A stretch of DNA of 40,569 nt, from positions 1-40,569 of the IMG/VR virus record IMGVR_UViG_3300026962_000013. One strand, written 5' to 3'. Position numbers and translations under genes: made by a program. The DNA is from a virus. Of the stretch, positions 1,283 through 31,066 are shown one piece after another; positions within the stretch are counted from its first letter, which is position 1, and each line of letters begins with the position of its first letter. The notes beneath the pieces were generated by a model. It did not search any database, was not told the DNA's origin, and saw nothing but the letters and a program-made list of their open reading frames with translations.

Positions 1283-1821
1283 CTGAGGACACGCCAGTAT
1301 CTGGTACAGGCACCACCAGGGTTCGTGACTCGGGGGAGAGACCCCGCCAGCCCGTGGTGTCCCTGCACCCCATCCTCACCGAGGACATTCTCGAAGCCGG
1401 GGATGTCTGTCAGAACTGTCATCGCCGCATCCGCAGTCGACGCGTCCACCGCCGCAGCCGCGACCCCGCCTCGCCGACGAGTGTCCGCCGAAGCAAGTAT
1501 CGGCGCCGACGTCGGTCGACCGTCGTCGACTACGGGCCCGGCGACACCGCCGACGAGTCCCGCGGCGTCTGGTGTCACTGCGGCGCCGAAGACGCGTGGA
1601 CGAGGTTGTGGGAAACAGCGCACTGGGAGCGGGTGCGGGAGCTGATCAAGGCGACCATCCGCACCCTCGAGTCCAAGGGGTACACCGTCGACCGTGACGC
1701 GTTCGCGCTCGTCGCACTCGCCCGGTGTGGGACAGCACCCATCGGACCGAACGGCATCGCCGCCGCGTTGTCCGCATCGATCGCGGCAGGCGTCGACGAG
1801 TCACACCCCATCGACACGTAG
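1279..1821 (+). CDS. Zn-finger-containing hypothetical viral protein
   Basis: CQNC and WCHCG motifs; translationally coupled to upstream gene. Confidence 0.7.
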   Translation: MTEDTPVSGTGTTRVRDSGERPRQPVVSLHPILTEDILEAGDVCQNCHRRIRSRRVHRRSRDPASPTSVRRSKYRRRRRSTVVDYGPGDTADESRGVWCHCGAEDAWTRLWETAHWERVRELIKATIRTLESKGYTVDRDAFALVALARCGTAPIGPNGIAAALSASIAAGVDESHPIDT

Positions 1822-1826
1822 TCAGT

Positions 1827-2060
1827 ATGCCTACATCAATCACGGTGTCCCGGGACCCGTCGGAGTACCGACCGACGATCCATGCCGGGCAACGCGCGAA
1901 AGAGCGTGGCATCAACTGGGATCGGGTGGCGGACGCGATCGACGGTGGCGAGGTGCGGCAGACGCATCGGCGTGGGTGTCGGTTGTTCGTCGACGACGGG
2001 GTCGGTGTGGTCGTCGACGTGGCCGACCGAGAGATATTGACGGTGGGTTGGTACGAGTAG
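1827..2060 (+). CDS. DUF4258-like protein (RelE/BECR-fold nuclease-like)
   Basis: 77 aa from ATG 1827; HAxxRxxERGI...V...I..G...VVVD...ILTV pattern typical of DUF4258. Confidence 0.7.
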   Translation: MPTSITVSRDPSEYRPTIHAGQRAKERGINWDRVADAIDGGEVRQTHRRGCRLFVDDGVGVVVDVADREILTVGWYE

Positions 2061-2149
2061 GTCCCGATGACGGCCGCTGGGGTGCTCCCATGCTCGAGGG
2101 TGTTGCACCGGTCGCGGATGCTGGCAGCTCGTCCGCGAGGATACGTGGT

Positions 2150-2343
2150 CACGGGGATCGGTTCGAGTCCTGTCACTGTGAGTTGCCGACTGCGGCAGCG
2201 AATACGTGCCCTCGCCTCGACGCTGGGTGCCCCCTGGATAACAGGGGATCGCGGGGTCGGGGATTCCCGGGGGTCAGGTGAGAGTCCTGGCTGCCGCACA
2301 TTCGCCTCGTTGGCGGTGCGTGGTTCGACTCCACGCCGAGGTA
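2150..2343 (+). ncRNA. Three small T-loop-capped tRNA-like units (2150-2181, 2251-2298, 2304-2343) plus hairpins
   Basis: T-loops TTCGAGT (2162-2168), TGAGAGT (2279-2285), TTCGACT (2324-2330), each closing a stem that stacks on a short acceptor-like stem. Confidence 0.5.
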
Positions 2344-2355
2344 TCGGCGGATAAG

Positions 2356-2441
2356 GCCGTGAATGGGTGTTGACCCTGCGGAGGCGGTAAACCCGTCTAA
2401 GGCGTTCACGCGTCTGAGTGGGTGAGAACCCTGTCACGGCA
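2356..2441 (+). ncRNA. Non-canonical class-II-like cloverleaf RNA (86 nt)
   Basis: 7-bp GCCGTGA/TCACGGC acceptor + discriminator A, three internal hairpins, T-arm with TGAGAAC loop. Confidence 0.55.
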
Positions 2442-2450
2442 CCGTCGCAC

Positions 2451-2634
2451 GGGCCGATAGCTCAATGGTAGAGTCGGAGAGTAGCGCCACCCGACGTAGA
2501 TTACCCCCGATGTTCACCCCGGAAGGCGCGTCCGGTGTTGGGCGGCATCGGTGAGGTAGAGCGGCACCCGTCCCTGGGTGTGGCGCTCCACGCGATTCGG
2601 AAGCAACGTGCAGGTTCAACTCCTGCTCGGCCCA
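2451..2634 (+). ncRNA. tRNA-like RNA with ~105 nt structured insert in the anticodon arm (184 nt)
   Basis: GGGCCGA/TCGGCCC-A acceptor, TAGCTCAATGGTAGAG D-arm, GCAGG-TTCAACT-CCTGC T-arm; no canonical anticodon loop. Confidence 0.75.
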
Positions 2635-2724
2635 CTCGCCCGCCTGCCGCGGCAGGTGGGAAGTCGCGGGCTGAAAGACGCCAAAGGGAGCGACATCCGA
2701 GCGTTCCCCTACAGCGCGGCGTTC

Positions 2725-2943
2725 GGACCGATAGCTCAGTCTGGGAGAGCACCGGGCTTAGTTCCGTGGTAGTAATCGACCGGGTGACTGAACGCCGCGA
2801 GGCAAATAGGGTGGTCCGGTCGTGAACAAGACGCGGGAAGCGCCATAAGTAGGGAGATACGGCGGGACGCCGCCGTGCCGGTGACGGCTATCCCGAAGGC
2901 GTGGATTGCCTGGCTGTCCCGAGTTCAAATCTCGGTCGGTCCA
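2725..2943 (+). ncRNA. tRNA-like RNA with 152 nt structured insert replacing the anticodon loop (219 nt)
   Basis: GGACCGA/TCGGTCC-A acceptor, GCTC-AGTCTGGGA-GAGC D-arm, CCGGG/CCTGG anticodon stem, CTGTC variable loop, CCGAG-TTCAAAT-CTCGG T-arm. Confidence 0.8.
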
Positions 2944-2945
2944 CT

Positions 2946-3013
2946 GGCCCACGGGTACCCCCGTTGAACCAACCCCACCGGGGTTGGGACCAGCCCCCGA
3001 GGCTGGGTGGGCC
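2946..3013 (+). ncRNA. Four-way-junction RNA without tRNA consensus
   Basis: GGCCCAC/GTGGGCC closing stem enclosing three hairpins (including CCAACCCC/GGGGTTGG and CCAGCC/GGCTGG). Confidence 0.45.
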
Positions 3014-3069
3014 TCCAACCCCGACGCGGCCTCTCCTCCCCCGAGGACGTGACTTCCCCGCGTCACCAA

Positions 3070-3098
3070 CCCGCGTCGACCTCACCCGTCGACGCGGG
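3070..3098. repeat. Perfect 11-bp inverted repeat
   Basis: CCCGCGTCGAC-CTCACCC-GTCGACGCGGG just upstream of ATG 3114. Confidence 0.85.
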
Positions 3099-3113
3099 CC
3101 TCAACACACATTC

Positions 3114-3446
3114 ATGACTGTCGAGCAAAGCCCGATCAGACAACCACTCGCCACCCACCCCGTCACCCGGGTGAAAGCCGAACTCGCCTGCCTCCTCCTC
3201 GTCTTCGTTCCCCACCACGACAACAGCCACACCAGAAAAGTCGCGACGTGGATCCTCGTCGCCACCTGGGCGATCATCACCGTCCTCGTCTCGACCGGCG
3301 ACGCCAACGCCACCGCCACCTACGGTGTCTTGAGCGCTGTCGTGTGGTCGTTGATCGGGCGGTGGTGGGGGATCGAGGCGGACCTGCAGGCATTCGGCGG
3401 CACGATCACGCTCAACCAACAGCAAGACGATTCCAACGACAAATGA
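3114..3446 (+). CDS. Small membrane protein (holin-like candidate)
   Basis: ATG 3114; 2-3 hydrophobic segments, charged C-terminus. Confidence 0.6.
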   Translation: MTVEQSPIRQPLATHPVTRVKAELACLLLVFVPHHDNSHTRKVATWILVATWAIITVLVSTGDANATATYGVLSAVVWSLIGRWWGIEADLQAFGGTITLNQQQDDSNDK

Positions 3447-3766: not shown

Positions 3767-5026
3767 ATGGTCGCCGACGACATCGACCTCACACAGAACC
3801 AGGAACGCGTCCTACACTTCCTCCCCGCAGACAAACACGATATCGCCGCCGAACTCGAGTGCGCAGAGAACACCGCGAAGTACTACATCGAAAAACTGCG
3901 GGACAAAGGCGTTGACATCGTCTGGAACCCAGACACCGGCACCTACACCCATGCCACCGACAACGAAGACACCGAGTCAGACCCCCTCCCCACCTTCGAC
4001 ACCACCAACACGGACACGATCCCCACCACCGACGACCTCCCCGACGGCCTCCTCCGAACCCTCCGCCAAGACGGGTTAACCTACGACGACTTCAACACCG
4101 AGTACGGGTGGAGCCGCGACCAAGTCAGCCGCCTCCTCCAACGCCTCCGCGAAGCCGGATACGAACTCGAATACGAGACCATCGACGACAACGGCACCCG
4201 CCTCTGGTACATCCCCGACGACGGCGACAAACGCTACCGCCTCGGCAACGGCGACGGCCGCTACCGCTTCGGCCTCATCAGCGACACACACCTCGGCGCC
4301 AAAACCGAACGATTAGACGACCTCCACGACTTCTACGACCGCCTCGTCGACCACGGCATCGACCTCGTCTTCCACGCCGGCGACATCGGCGACGGCTGGA
4401 AAGTCCACCGCAACCACGTCAACGGCGTCAAAGGCAAAGCCACCGGCTGGGAACGACTCCGCGACTACGTCATCGACAACTACCCACACCGAGACGACAT
4501 CGACACCCTGTTCATCGAAGGCAACCACGACCACAAACTCTACCGCCGCGAAGGCATCCACTTCGGCGAACTCATCGACCAACGCCGCGACGACCTCCAC
4601 TACCTCGGCGACAGCCAAGCCCGCATCGTCTTCGACGACACAAACGACATCGACCTCGAACTCATCCACCCCGCCGGCGGCAAACCCTACACCCTCGGCT
4701 ACCGCCTCCAAACACTGTACCGCGAACGCCCCCTCCACGACCGCCCCACCATCGCCGCCATCGGCCACCTCCACGGCCAAATGCAAGCCGAATCCGAAGG
4801 CGTCCTCGGCTTCTACACCGGGTGCTGGAAAGACCTCACCACCTACGGGCAAAGGCGAGGCCACAAAGGCGCCATCGGCGGCTGGATCATCGACCTCGAA
4901 ATCCAAAGCGGCGAAGTCCGCAGCCTCGGCACCCGCTGGGTCACCTACGGCGACGGCGAAACCACCCAACACTACTCGATGCATGACATCAGCGACATGA
5001 TCGACGCCACCCCCCAAACCTTCTAA
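3767..5026 (+). CDS. Calcineurin-like metallophosphoesterase with two N-terminal HTH domains
   Basis: Motifs ISDTH, HAGDIGDG, GNHD, IHP, GHLH; N-terminal DIAAELECAENTAKYYIEKLR and WSRDQVSRLLQRLR HTH patterns. Confidence 0.88.
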   Translation: MVADDIDLTQNQERVLHFLPADKHDIAAELECAENTAKYYIEKLRDKGVDIVWNPDTGTYTHATDNEDTESDPLPTFDTTNTDTIPTTDDLPDGLLRTLRQDGLTYDDFNTEYGWSRDQVSRLLQRLREAGYELEYETIDDNGTRLWYIPDDGDKRYRLGNGDGRYRFGLISDTHLGAKTERLDDLHDFYDRLVDHGIDLVFHAGDIGDGWKVHRNHVNGVKGKATGWERLRDYVIDNYPHRDDIDTLFIEGNHDHKLYRREGIHFGELIDQRRDDLHYLGDSQARIVFDDTNDIDLELIHPAGGKPYTLGYRLQTLYRERPLHDRPTIAAIGHLHGQMQAESEGVLGFYTGCWKDLTTYGQRRGHKGAIGGWIIDLEIQSGEVRSLGTRWVTYGDGETTQHYSMHDISDMIDATPQTF

Positions 5027-18752: not shown

Positions 18753-20726
18753 ATGGCATTTCGTAACTTGTCCGCGCGGATCACCGGAGACAGCACCAGC
18801 TACGTCACCGCAACCCAAACCGCGAAACGCGCCGCGTCCAGCTTCGGCAGCGAAGCCACGAGCCTCGCCGCGAAACTCCAACTCCTCCAGGGCAGGGCGG
18901 ATGAAGCCGAAAGCGAGATCGACAGCGTCGGCCGCAGTGCAACAAGCACTTCCACGTCGTTCACCGCTCTCACCGCCTCGACCGAGGGGTTGGCCCTGTC
19001 GTTCGGCAGTCTCGGCACCACGACATCGGTGACGCTGATCCCGGCGATGGTCGCATTGTCCACCGTGTTGTTGCCGTTGGCGGCGACGTTCGGCGGTCTC
19101 GCCACCGCCGCCGCGAGCCTCGCCGGGGCGTTCGGCCTCGTCATCGGGTCGGGGTTGATCGCGTTCGGACAGAAACGCGGGGAGCAGAACGCGCAGCGAC
19201 TCGCCCAGATCCGGGCGCGGATCGCGGGCTTGGAATCCCTCCGCCAAGAGACCGGTCAACTCACCGCCGCGCAACGACAGCAGCTCCAAACCCTCCAGGA
19301 ACAGGAGGAATCCCTCCAGAATCAAACGGGGGTCCTGGGTGGGCTCCAGTCCGCGATTGGCGACGTCGTCGCGGAGATCAAGCCGATGATCGTCGCCTTC
19401 GGCCAGGAGTTCATCCCCCTGATCGAGGCGGGGTTCGAGGCGATTCCCCAGCTCGTCGAGAACATCCTCGAGGCGGTCGGCGGCCTCTCAGCATTCAAGG
19501 ACGCGTTAGGCGACGCTGGGGAGGCGGCGATGCAGGCCATCCCGAACATGGTGGCGGCGTTGATGGATATCGCCCGCGAGGCGTTGCCTGCACTGCGTCG
19601 GGGTGCGGCGTGGTTGATGCGGAATGGCCCCCGGATTTTCCGGGGGATGATGCGGACGACGCGACAGGTGCTCCCATTGTTGCAGCGGTTGGTGTTGGCG
19701 TTCGTCGATGCGGCGCCGACGCTGAACCGGTTCGGGACGGCGATTATCGAGTACGTGGTCCCGGGGGTGACGAGTGCGGTGAACGCGGTGGCGGGGTTGG
19801 TGGATTGGTGGAACAACCTGAACGGTATCATCAAGACGGCGTTGATCATCGGGGTCGGATCGGCGATCGCGGCGTTGGGGTCGGGCGTCGTCGCGTTGGT
19901 CGCGGCGGTCGTGGCTGCCGTGGAGATCTGGGACGTGTTCAAATCGGTGGTCATTGCGGTGGTCGATGTCGTCTCCGATGCGGTGTCGACGATCTCTGGG
20001 CTCGGGGGCGGGGTCATCGACGAGTTCTCGTCGCTCGGGTCGTGGTTGGTCTCGACCGGGTCGTCGGTGGTTGGTGACGGTGTGGCGGCGATCGTCGAGT
20101 CGGCGAAAGCGGTGTGGGATTGGTTCACCGGCACCGGTGACGGGACGTTGCTCGGCGGGATCAAGAGTACCGTCGACGCCATCCCCGGGTTGTTCACGGA
20201 CGCGGTGCAGGGTCTCGAGGACGTGGTGAATCAGGCGATGGGGTTGCCGTGGACGATCTCGATTCCGTCGGTGACGATCGCGGGGCACACGATTGGTGGG
20301 GGGTCGATCACCATCCCGAAGATCGGTGGGTCAGGTGGGGCGACGAACGGGTGGCCGGATGACATCAACCGGAGTCCGGGGAACGATGGTGGTGGGAGTT
20401 TCGGGGATCGACCCGGCACCGGCGACGATGGCGGTGGTGGTGGTGCTGACGTGGGGCCGGGGTTGACGATGCCGAGTGCGGCCTCGGGTGGGTTGATTAC
20501 GCGGACGGGGGTGGCGCTCGTCCATCAGGGAGAGCGGATTGTGCCGGAGGCCCAGGTCCAGGATCGGGGGCCGGCACCGCCGTCTCAAGTGGTGTTGCGG
20601 TTGGAGGGCGTCGAGGGGCGGTTGGGTGAGGTGTTCCGGGAGGAGGCGGAGGTCGTCGTGCAGGAGGCGGAGACGGCGACCCAACGCCGTGTCCAACGGT
20701 TGCAGTCTCGGGGTGACTTGGGGTGA
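18753..20726 (+). CDS. Tape measure protein
   Basis: 657 aa Ala/Gly-rich helical protein with hydrophobic segments, downstream of the TAC pair. Confidence 0.9.
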   Translation: MAFRNLSARITGDSTSYVTATQTAKRAASSFGSEATSLAAKLQLLQGRADEAESEIDSVGRSATSTSTSFTALTASTEGLALSFGSLGTTTSVTLIPAMVALSTVLLPLAATFGGLATAAASLAGAFGLVIGSGLIAFGQKRGEQNAQRLAQIRARIAGLESLRQETGQLTAAQRQQLQTLQEQEESLQNQTGVLGGLQSAIGDVVAEIKPMIVAFGQEFIPLIEAGFEAIPQLVENILEAVGGLSAFKDALGDAGEAAMQAIPNMVAALMDIAREALPALRRGAAWLMRNGPRIFRGMMRTTRQVLPLLQRLVLAFVDAAPTLNRFGTAIIEYVVPGVTSAVNAVAGLVDWWNNLNGIIKTALIIGVGSAIAALGSGVVALVAAVVAAVEIWDVFKSVVIAVVDVVSDAVSTISGLGGGVIDEFSSLGSWLVSTGSSVVGDGVAAIVESAKAVWDWFTGTGDGTLLGGIKSTVDAIPGLFTDAVQGLEDVVNQAMGLPWTISIPSVTIAGHTIGGGSITIPKIGGSGGATNGWPDDINRSPGNDGGGSFGDRPGTGDDGGGGGADVGPGLTMPSAASGGLITRTGVALVHQGERIVPEAQVQDRGPAPPSQVVLRLEGVEGRLGEVFREEAEVVVQEAETATQRRVQRLQSRGDLG

Positions 20727-29154: not shown

Positions 29155-29703
29155 ATGACAGACGATGGGATGAATGAAGATGAGGACAAAGTTGCGGTGG
29201 ACGCGGGTAGCGTAACGGAAGCATCAGTAAAAGCCCCCAAGCCGAGCGTAATCCTTTATCCTGGCGATCAACTCAGGGATCGACGTAATGGAATCATTCA
29301 GCACCATTATCGGCATTCCGAGATTCCATTGGACAAATTGCGGGCATTCATCATCTACGCATCCGGTGTAATCGAGGTATATTGTACTAAGTTAATTCGA
29401 GAGGAGGTCATCGCGGCGGATTACCAACATCAAGCGTATTCATATTTGCTTGAGGATATGAGTCAGACCCACCGGGAGTCTCTATTATCTCAATGCGATC
29501 TATTTGATGATTCACTTTGTGGTAGCCTTGGCAATTTTCGTGGATTGAGGAATAAGCTCGCTCACCAACCGCATGATCCTATTGATTGGGATGAAGAGAA
29601 CGTTCCGAGTAAAATGACTCTGGGCATCGATATTATCGATGTACTCTATGAGGCGTTGCGTAGTGGCGACGCCTCAGAAAGCCTCTCAGATCATTCGCTT
29701 TGA
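29155..29703 (+). CDS. HEPN-domain protein (putative RNase)
   Basis: Helical protein with RNKLAH (R-x4-H) motif; low GC, AT-rich upstream region. Confidence 0.7.
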   Translation: MTDDGMNEDEDKVAVDAGSVTEASVKAPKPSVILYPGDQLRDRRNGIIQHHYRHSEIPLDKLRAFIIYASGVIEVYCTKLIREEVIAADYQHQAYSYLLEDMSQTHRESLLSQCDLFDDSLCGSLGNFRGLRNKLAHQPHDPIDWDEENVPSKMTLGIDIIDVLYEALRSGDASESLSDHSL

Positions 29704-29805
29704 CTCCCGGTCTCTTTGGCGGTAAGACAGGAGATGCAATTTCCTTCTTCACTTTTGGTATCCATGTGGCCTAGCCCTACTACAACCCCCTTCTTTTCCT
29801 CGTGT

Positions 29806-30075
29806 ATGGGGAAGACGACTCCCACCTACCGCGACACGATGCACGACGCCCTCGAACCATACGACACCCAATACCGGCGCGCCCTCCGCCGCGACCGCCA
29901 AGCCGCCTACGACGCCCTCCGCGACGATCTCGAGGAGCTCACCATGGCGATGGGCGCCGCCAACGCCCCAGACGTCTGGACACCGATTCACCTTTCATTG
30001 GCCGTCGTCCTCGCCGAGCGCCTCGACGAGCTCGAGGCCCGAGTCACCGCCCTCGAGGCAGCACTCGACTCCTGA
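29806..30075 (+). CDS. Small helical protein of the haloarchaeal MGxTxPTYRD family
   Basis: MGKTTPTYRD...YRRALRR...C-terminal coiled coil; family recalled as neighbouring PolB2-type polymerases. Confidence 0.7.
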   Translation: MGKTTPTYRDTMHDALEPYDTQYRRALRRDRQAAYDALRDDLEELTMAMGAANAPDVWTPIHLSLAVVLAERLDELEARVTALEAALDS

Positions 30076-30112
30076 CCCGTCGTTTTACCCGCCCCCACCA
30101 GTACCTCCGCGT

Positions 30113-30280
30113 ATGAGCGTCCGGTCTCGCATCCGTCGGCACTGGGTGAGCGCCGACACGATGGCGGCGGACAACATCCTCCCCAAACCCCTGTTCTACA
30201 TCGGCGGCATCCCCCTCTGGATCACGGTCACCGTAATCGGAACATATCGCGGTGTCCGCTACGACTGGCTGGATCGCTGA
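30113..30280 (+). CDS. Small single-TM protein (55 aa)
   Basis: Translated by hand; TTTTAC TATA-like element about 28 nt upstream. Confidence 0.55.
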   Translation: MSVRSRIRRHWVSADTMAADNILPKPLFYIGGIPLWITVTVIGTYRGVRYDWLDR

Positions 30281-30334
30281 CCCGGCTCCCGACCCGACAT
30301 CCTCTTGTACACAATCCACCCTACCACTACCCGC

Positions 30335-31066
30335 ATGGGGGTCACGGACGCGGAACTCCTCGCGGAGATCCGTCGCCTCGCCGACGACATCGGTGCCACA
30401 CCCACGCTCCAGCAGATGCGGGACCACGGCCAGTACTCGGTCACCACCTACTACAACCACTTCGACTCCTGGAGTGCCGCTGTCGAAGCCGCCGGGTTCG
30501 AACCCCATCAGCAGGACACGAAACACGAAACGGAGGACCTCCTCGCCGAACTCAGGCGCCTCGCCAGCGAACTGGGTGCCGTACCGACAGCTGCCCAGAT
30601 GAACGCTGAAGGCAAGTTCTGGGCGAATTCGTACCAGAACCACTTCGGATCCTGGCGAGCGGCGCTTGAGGCAGCCGACCTCGAACCGCGGGATCCCGAC
30701 ACGCGAATTGATCCCTCGGCCCTGATCGAGGACTTACAACGGGTCGCCGACGCGGTCGATGGTTCGCCGTCGGAGGCTGACGTCCGCGAGCATGGGGAGT
30801 ATGGGGTGCGAACGTTTTATCGACGGTTTGGGTCGTGGGGGAACGCTCTCGAGGCGGCGGAATTGGGGGATGACGCCTTTCAAGAGCGGATTCCGATTCG
30901 AGAGTTGTTGGTGGAGGTGCAGCGCTTGGAGGCTGCGTTGGGGCGGCCGCCGTCGACGGTCGACGTTCGGGAGCGTGGGCGGTTCTCGTTGGCGCCGTAT
31001 TATCGGCGGTTTGGGTCGTGGGAGCAGGTGTTGGAGGCGGCTGGGATCGACCCTGGCGACGATTGA
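30335..31066 (+). CDS. Homing-endonuclease-associated (HNH_repeat) protein, four repeats, no nuclease domain
   Basis: Four ~57 aa units: LL.E..RLA...G..P.......G.....Y...FGSW..A.EAAG. Confidence 0.85.
   Translation: MGVTDAELLAEIRRLADDIGATPTLQQMRDHGQYSVTTYYNHFDSWSAAVEAAGFEPHQQDTKHETEDLLAELRRLASELGAVPTAAQMNAEGKFWANSYQNHFGSWRAALEAADLEPRDPDTRIDPSALIEDLQRVADAVDGSPSEADVREHGEYGVRTFYRRFGSWGNALEAAELGDDAFQERIPIRELLVEVQRLEAALGRPPSTVDVRERGRFSLAPYYRRFGSWEQVLEAAGIDPGDD

Follow-up and report, generated by a model that had tools for sequence, protein, structure and literature searches.

tRNA-like modules with large inserts in a gene-free gap of a haloarchaeal tailed provirus

Non-decoding tRNA-like folds inside longer haloarchaeal transcripts are known from Haloferax volcanii, where such t-elements (e.g., upstream of the 5S rRNA) are cleaved in vivo by RNase P and tRNase Z, and this cleavage defines the ends of the neighboring RNAs (PMC4326828). 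The t-elements are small, single and cellular. In this study, by contrast, we analyze a viral array of tRNA-like units with predicted cleavage. It occupies a noncoding gap of about 1 kb, referred to as the block, in a stretch of 40,569 nucleotides (nt), which we call the window and which represents the 40.6-kb IMG/VR provirus record IMGVR_UViG_3300026962_000013 of a haloarchaeal tailed virus. Two members of the array, named E and F, carry inserts of 106-152 nt: both are complete tRNA bodies in which folded domains of 106 and 152 nt, respectively, replace the anticodon loop.

An acceptor/T-arm body that carries a foreign domain in place of the anticodon arm is likewise found in the engineered 'tRNA scaffold' RNAs that Ponchon and Dardel are said to have reported in 2007, where the tRNA body confers processing and stability, and in transfer-messenger RNA (tmRNA). 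However, the scaffolds are artificial, and tmRNA is bacterial and has a G3-U70 pair and a tag reading frame, whereas the corresponding pair is G3-C70 in E and A3-U70 in F. In archaeal intron-containing pre-tRNAs, the anticodon region is interrupted by about 100 nt of structured and possibly functional RNA; e.g., a C/D-box RNA is encoded by the intron of haloarchaeal tRNA-Trp, which is about 100 nt long. The frames in the window differ from these precursors in having neither a bulge-helix-bulge at the borders of the insert nor a normal loop after its excision. Positions of archaeal tRNA introns are documented (PMC4090602). The partial tRNA sequences used as attP in the HF1 group are conserved, tRNA-like and noncoding in halovirus genomes (PMC7230728), but they are 3' fragments adjoining an integrase gene, while the frames of the window are whole and lie far from the integrase and the provirus ends. 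The locus of Halorubrum virus BJ1 (20047-20365) and its relatives occupies the corresponding genomic position and likewise features a tRNA frame whose arm at the anticodon site is enlarged. It differs in that it is composed of one intact decoding tRNA and one tRNA-like element of 106 nt, and its remainder cannot be aligned with the window; the BJ1 paper reports only the tRNA at this locus (PMC2194725). Compared to all these, the feature in the window is real and unusual, and it is a variant of the tRNA-like elements of viruses and haloarchaea. We know of almost no structured noncoding RNAs (ncRNAs) from archaeal viruses.

Composition of the block

Both E and F have a perfect acceptor stem of 7 base pairs (bp) with discriminator A, a 4-bp D stem accompanied by A14 and G18G19, and a 5-bp T stem with a U54-U55-C56-R57-A58 loop. 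U8, A21, G53, and C61 are present, and positions 15 and 48 form a matching tertiary pair in both frames (A-U in E, G-C in F). In E, the acceptor strands map to 2451-2457 and 2627-2633, the D arm to 2460-2474, the T arm to 2610-2626, and the discriminator is A2634; a GGAG/CUCC stem surrounds the 106-nt insert (2480-2585), and a 'variable' stretch of 20 nt precedes the T arm. F keeps a 5-bp anticodon stem, CCGGG/CCUGG (2752-2756/2909-2913), that encloses 152 nt. Loops of this insert are of the GNRA type (GCGA at 2797-2800 and GUGA at 2881-2884), and it contains an AGUA/GAA internal loop (2848-2851/2895-2897), a motif which the first-pass annotation of this DNA had listed as bulged-G. With long introns allowed, ARAGORN calls two genes, a tRNA-His(gtg) with a 97-nt intron at 2451-2635 and a tRNA-Ala(ggc) with a 126-nt intron at 2725-2944.

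With respect to acceptor, D and T arms and core nucleotides, E and F agree with canonical tRNAs. They were rejected as such, as they show no 5-bp anticodon stem capped by a 7-nt loop with U33 and purine 37 and do not reach the Rfam threshold; in a check by hand, no single excision yielded such a loop. At gathering threshold, Rfam matched neither a tRNA nor any other family in the whole window. The Rfam search of 1800-3400 at E ≤ 10 returned nothing above sub-threshold noise and no match to RF00005, GOLLD, ROOL or other large RNAs, while tRNAs from related viruses obtain 50-68 bits in the identical search. The comparison to tRNA, GOLLD and ROOL that the first-pass annotation had suggested thus led to no family, and the likeness to GOLLD/ROOL it had seen dropped out. 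Default ARAGORN reports no tRNA and no tmRNA, and tmRNA was dismissed on this negative search and on the 3-70 pairs given above. A C/D-box small RNA was considered for 2063-2117, where sR22 matches with 15.8 bits (gathering threshold 40, E 5), and was discarded, with no CUGA at the D position. E and F are firmly placed as non-decoding and outside both the canonical intron tRNAs and every Rfam family. As in t-elements, a tRNA-like acceptor/T-arm fold comes without decoding capacity; their location within a longer transcript is inferred from the sequence.

The block as a whole is free of called genes on four of four independent metagenome contigs, which are 100% identical, and no open reading frame (ORF) with acidic haloarchaeal composition occurs on either strand within about 2061-3060. 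The first-pass annotation had described the block as noncoding and as belonging to the + strand, in line with these data and with the better folding of that strand; its exclusion of acidic ORFs holds for the region just given, but not for the last 50 nt of the gap, into which a minus-strand ORF (3063-3425) reaches. A strict search for T arms (5 paired positions around TTCRANY) located canonical ones on the + strand at 2319, 2610, and 2919, i.e., three in the block versus two in the remaining 39.5 kb of this strand. Shuffled versions of the block are expected to hold about 0.008, and at least two were seen in 0 of 5000 shuffles.

The minimum free energy (MFE) of the whole block, which has a G+C content of 65%, amounts to -521 kcal/mol on the + strand versus -481 kcal/mol on the - strand. 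Sliding windows of 200 nt on the + strand reveal a mean z-score of about -2.2 in the block compared to about -0.4 in the coding flanks, and are generally more negative on the + than on the - strand. Region by region, z relative to shuffles is -3.05 for F, -3.5 for 2200-2450, -5.0 for unit D, -3.5 for 2182-2250, -0.85 for E, and +1.6 for 2060-2149. With E and 2060-2149 at these values, the excess of stability is uneven, and the statement that nearly every base falls into stems was overdrawn. GNRA tetraloops, also noted at first pass, are mildly enriched (6 capped hairpins in the block versus 1.9 +/- 1.35 expected, p about 0.01). The modules have self-contained closing stems and are spaced 6-12 nt apart, as in a tRNA array.

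Units A to D are smaller acceptor/T-arm-like hairpin modules. The MFE structure of C consists of exactly the acceptor-like stem and the T arm (z -1.6). D folds at -45.4 kcal/mol versus -28.8 kcal/mol in shuffles; it can form a rod or a cloverleaf, but the rod is the MFE structure, and the cloverleaf was not adopted. D carries the degenerate loop TGAGAAC, and the T-arm parts of B and D resemble diverged copies of that of A. The six T-loop units counted at first pass are therefore not equivalent: canonical T arms are present in E, F, and C, whereas in A, B, and D the stems are imperfect or the loops degenerate. That tRNA-like modules build the block is borne out by the full frames of E and F and by the canonical T arms, and the core of the first observation, tRNA-like modules in a gene-free gap, is largely real. 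All features are collected in Table 1.

Table 1. Features of the noncoding gap, in coordinates of the window.
Feature	Position	Strand	Basis or remark
Whole noncoding gap	2061..3113	+	No called gene on 4 contigs; no acidic ORF within about 2061-3060; sliding z-scores
13-mer TCCCGATGACGGC at block start	2062..2074	+	Common to the block starts of L074 (13/13) and L068 (12/13)
Unit A, minihelix-like hairpin, 12 positions (2 mismatches), TTCGAGT loop	2150..2181	+	Read from sequence; fold z -0.9
Unit B, hairpin with degenerate T-like loop TGAGAGT	2251..2298	+	Fold z -1.0, not significant
Unit C, 6-bp acceptor-like stem, 8-nt connector, canonical 6-bp T arm, TTCGACT loop	2304..2343	+	
Unit D, 86-nt element, perfect 7-bp closing stem GCCGTGA/TCACGGC, then A	2356..2441	+	z -5.0
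Unit E, complete tRNA frame	2451..2634	+	ARAGORN with long introns, T-arm search, direct reading
Spacer, 9-bp hairpin and branched hairpin	2637..2724	+	Fold z -2.2
Unit F, complete tRNA frame	2725..2943	+	ARAGORN with long introns, fold z -3.05, similarity to BJ1-type tRNA
Insert of F, 152 nt, two arms	2757..2908	+	Fold prediction and GNRA count
C-rich gap tail, several hairpins	2945..3113	+	GC skew flips; z -5.65 for 3061-3104

The locus in related viruses

Two genes upstream of the gap lies the gene of a protein of 180 amino acids (aa) (1279-1818), which is homologous to ORF41 of BJ1. Its family alignment, used as query, led to BJ1, eight other viral contigs, four metagenome contigs, and five Halorubrum genomes. 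Thirteen of these relatives show a common arrangement of an ORF41-family gene, a small ORF, one intact tRNA, and a conserved noncoding block of about 300 nt that ends in a tRNA-like element with a second canonical T arm. The tRNA of this BJ1 type overlaps the end of the upstream ORF. The gap in the window is syntenic with this BJ1-like locus of tRNA and structured RNA, the strongest piece of context, which had been missed at first pass.

RNAalifold, applied to 11 BJ1-type blocks, gives a 5' hairpin domain, a long-range helix, and the 3' tRNA-like element, with compensatory changes in 21 of the 55 pairs. The tRNA-like element of 106 nt is composed of a 6-bp acceptor, a D-like hairpin, a long arm of 57 nt, and a T arm. 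Pairing holds in 99.7% of its cells, 14 of its 29 pairs are changed on both sides, and such pairing is reached by none of 500 shuffles and approached by no slid register. The BJ1-type block is a real structured RNA under selection. Over this locus, Rfam recognizes the tRNA only, and the block, about 300 nt in length, appears to represent an ncRNA family that has not been described so far. Since covariation support and isolates such as BJ1 exist, experiments on the BJ1 type are feasible.

The BJ1-type block is located at L038:4838-5135 (about 20047-20344 in the BJ1 record) and also occurs in L032, L033, L035-L037, L039, L041, L045-L049, and L070. The anticodon of the viral tRNA varies, being Phe-GAA in most cases, Asn-GTT in L041, and Val-GAC in L046 (tRNAs at L041:4278-4353, L046:4146-4220, and, for L038, L038:4763-4839), and the downstream block is homologous throughout. 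The 3' strand of the BJ1-type acceptor is kept in L041 and different in L046.

Viruses with a TerL 83-86% identical to that of the window were regarded as closer relatives, and a second TerL profile search added none. Among them, L070 has the BJ1-type block at the locus. L068 and L074 share another block of 290-345 nt (L068:557-912, L074:5312-5607), which ends in a tRNA-framed element of about 200 nt with a multi-hairpin insert; the 13-mer TCCCGATGACGGC at the block start is the only sequence it has in common with the block of the window. L069 harbors a protein gene in place of the RNA block. The locus is hypervariable, and tRNA-framed RNAs recur there. In L068 and L074, an oligo-T run adjoins the element and the ATG of the next gene follows within 8 nt; cleavage by tRNase Z at this position would produce an almost leaderless mRNA.

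The 5' half of F is about 91% identical to the BJ1-type tRNA-Phe (nhmmer E 2e-6), and the search for homologues of the block did not lead beyond such tRNA halves. The sole blastn match among phage records was the 5' half of the BJ1 tRNA, and the 401 genomes sampled from the class of the Halorubrum genome G001 gave tRNA-half matches only. An nhmmer profile of the BJ1-type block likewise matched the window at the tRNA halves only; the rest of the two blocks cannot be aligned. No RNA run is listed among the sequencing runs that contain the block, and contigs of two DNA runs, searched at 80% likeness, contained no variant of it. As to the neighboring genes, no relatives of the 77-aa protein to the left of the gap were found in viral contigs, no close relative of the 180-aa protein among 5.8 billion proteins, and, in the same collection, no non-identical relative above 59% identity of the metallophosphoesterase encoded to the right. 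At 24 viral loci with the metallophosphoesterase, the upstream region has no tRNA and no similarity to the block. The absence of block relatives is explained by the lack of close relatives of the metallophosphoesterase and the 180-aa protein, and this viral segment is so far unique.

A short tRNA-like element of acceptor, one hairpin, and canonical T arm was observed in other relatives, about 100-150 nt downstream of the metallophosphoesterase gene (L010:1615-1680, L012/L013:1270-1335, L017:about 2895-2960, and L043:about 2920-2985). Its T stem shows compensatory changes (GACGG/CCGTC versus CCGGG/CCCGG).

Explanations for the block

We regard it as firm that the block consists of tRNA-derived modules on the + strand, at a locus where relatives keep selected, structured, tRNA-framed RNAs. 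An even chance is what we give to the further-reaching proposal that it represents an array of tRNA-derived non-decoding RNA modules of a haloarchaeal virus which are cut out by RNase P and tRNase Z. The block would be transcribed within the rightward operon; co-transcription with the neighbors is probable, because neither an AT-rich archaeal promoter nor a T-run of its own was seen inside the block and because the BJ1-type tRNA overlaps the upstream ORF. RNase P and tRNase Z of the host would recognize acceptor, T arm, and elbow and cut every module at its 5' and 3' ends. The two enzymes process haloarchaeal t-elements in vivo (PMC4326828), and RNase P recognizes its substrates by the acceptor and the D/T-loop region instead of the anticodon arm (PMC12630138). 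Stable tRNA-framed RNAs of about 185 and 220 nt would result from such cutting, together with smaller fragments, and the mRNAs upstream and downstream would be parted from each other. The tRNA body might then serve as processing handle and stabilizing scaffold, and the inserted domain might be the working part that binds, e.g., a host or viral protein. A polycistron cut at its tRNA-like ends, one of two modes of expression envisaged at first pass, appears the most plausible, given the t-elements of Haloferax (PMC4326828). Provided that processing occurs and the products are stable, the modules would represent a natural counterpart to the engineered tRNA-scaffold trick, and a class of structured ncRNA from archaeal viruses that was not found described in the literature searched.

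Several observations weigh against this proposal. E is no more stable than shuffled sequence, and 2060-2149 folds less stably than its shuffles. The inserts have no homologue in any collection searched, and hence no covariation supports them. Kinship of the block with the BJ1 type is one of position and architecture only: the covariance model R1, built from 11 members of the BJ1-type tRNA-like element, does not find the units of the window, and its best hit there (2863-2945; 14.5 bits, E 0.11) owes its score to the T arm alone. A comparison of F with the BJ1 tRNA-Phe speaks for the proposal, with both partners changed in five stem pairs and no pair broken, but such compensatory differences are also expected if F derived from a different tRNA. 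Finally, what is said above on promoter and terminator is a reading of the letters.

The main and serious rival, to which we grant about half the weight of the proposal, is a decaying cluster of tRNA genes, in which insertions into the anticodon loops and point decay have left functionless pseudogenes. Relatives hold an intact tRNA at this site while there is none anywhere in the present virus, and the close relative L069 does without any RNA block; A, B, and D, as apparent diverged copies of one T-arm module with degraded loops, and the missing excess stability of E fit decay as well. Yet all stem pairs of acceptor, D and T arms and the core nucleotides are intact in E and F in spite of inserts of 106-152 nt, and this disfavors decay, because random decay should strike stems and core as often as the loop. 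Moreover, 1 kb of junk is unusual for a capsid-limited virus genome, F, D, and 2182-2250 are significantly structured, and at this locus relatives have non-tRNA structured RNAs under selection. Functional tRNA genes with unusually long spliced introns are suggested by the two ARAGORN calls. Introns of about 100 nt do occur in haloarchaeal tRNA genes. Among viruses, HGTV-1 encodes one tRNA that is interrupted by an intron (PMC13532342). Nevertheless, we consider this reading of E and F unlikely. When the block was scanned for bulge-helix-bulge motifs, defined by a 4-bp helix, 3-nt bulges, and 3-bp flanking helices, it yielded 15 candidates, while shuffles yielded 18.9 on average, and no candidate coincides with an insert border of E or F. 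In the ARAGORN products, the anticodon stem is mismatched and the variable regions measure 20-24 nt, the 'His' product of E has neither G-1 nor C73, every excision in F that keeps CCGGG/CCUGG leaves U37, and the Rfam tRNA model remains silent. As no excision restores a normal anticodon loop or variable region, canonical archaeal intron tRNAs were rejected.

Slightly less probable still are att-type scars left by integrases that target tRNA genes. Partial tRNA sequences are common as attP in haloviruses (PMC7230728, PMC7911831), and the provirus encodes a tyrosine integrase. However, the integrase gene is at 39.3-40.6 kb, at the far right, and more than 2 kb separate the block from the left end, so that the block is not attL and not attR. 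Both tRNA halves, with matching acceptor strands, are present in E and F rather than a 3' fragment, and in integrated proviruses the BJ1-type block is unbroken. Least of all do we expect one giant ornate RNA of the GOLLD/ROOL kind with a single fold of about 900 nt, the other mode raised at first pass. The MFE structure of the whole stretch contains long-range helices, and the GNRA enrichment and the loop-E-like motif would suit such an RNA, but long-range helices are expected by chance in a kilobase of 65% G+C and nothing backs them, no large Rfam RNA matches, and the anatomy is modular, with closely spaced tRNA-like ends.

Returning to the array of excised modules, a wider version of it is put forward tentatively, with clearly less confidence: BJ1-related haloarchaeal siphoviruses may keep a fast-evolving locus of tRNA-scaffolded RNAs whose payloads are swapped between lineages, this turnover reflecting conflict of virus and host. 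The payloads would be the 57-nt arm of the BJ1 type, a segment of about 160 nt in L068/L074, and, in the window, the two inserts of 106 and 152 nt, and they might act, e.g., as decoys or inhibitors of RNA-binding defense or translation factors of the host. Three or more unrelated tRNA-framed RNAs across viruses with terminases about 85% identical are a signature of rapid functional turnover. If this holds true, the window would be the most elaborate example known, with two scaffolded RNAs and four mini-modules.

Neighboring genes and gap tail

The block is carried by a tailed virus of haloarchaea that is temperate. To the right of the block are the genes for terminase and portal and those of the Mu-F-type head, and the tyrosine integrase gene forms the far right end. 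The metallophosphoesterase gene (3767-5026) encodes an additional helix-turn-helix part and is common in haloarchaeal tailed viruses, BLv36 included. The gap itself is delimited by the stop codon of the 77-aa gene at 2060 and by the ATG at 3114 of the next called gene, which encodes a 110-aa membrane protein. The label DUF4258 for the 77-aa gene was not retained, the DUF4258-like match being weak (E 0.013) and below the Pfam cut-off; in PHROGs, the gene matches families of unknown function only. On account of both results, we did not build on a toxin or decoy reading.

At the right border, a perfect 11-bp hairpin with a 7-nt loop (3070-3098, z -5.65) ends 15 nt before the ATG of the membrane-protein gene and could be a regulatory or transcript-end element. 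The acidic ORF that reaches into the last 50 nt of the gap (3063-3425, - strand) comprises 120 aa and lies opposite the called membrane-protein gene. In the late region, at 29155-31063, two genes resemble accessory or defense-type cargo: one has a borderline match to HEPN RiboL-PSP (24.9 bits versus a cut-off of 28.4), and the other one strongly matches an HNH homing-endonuclease-repeat protein.

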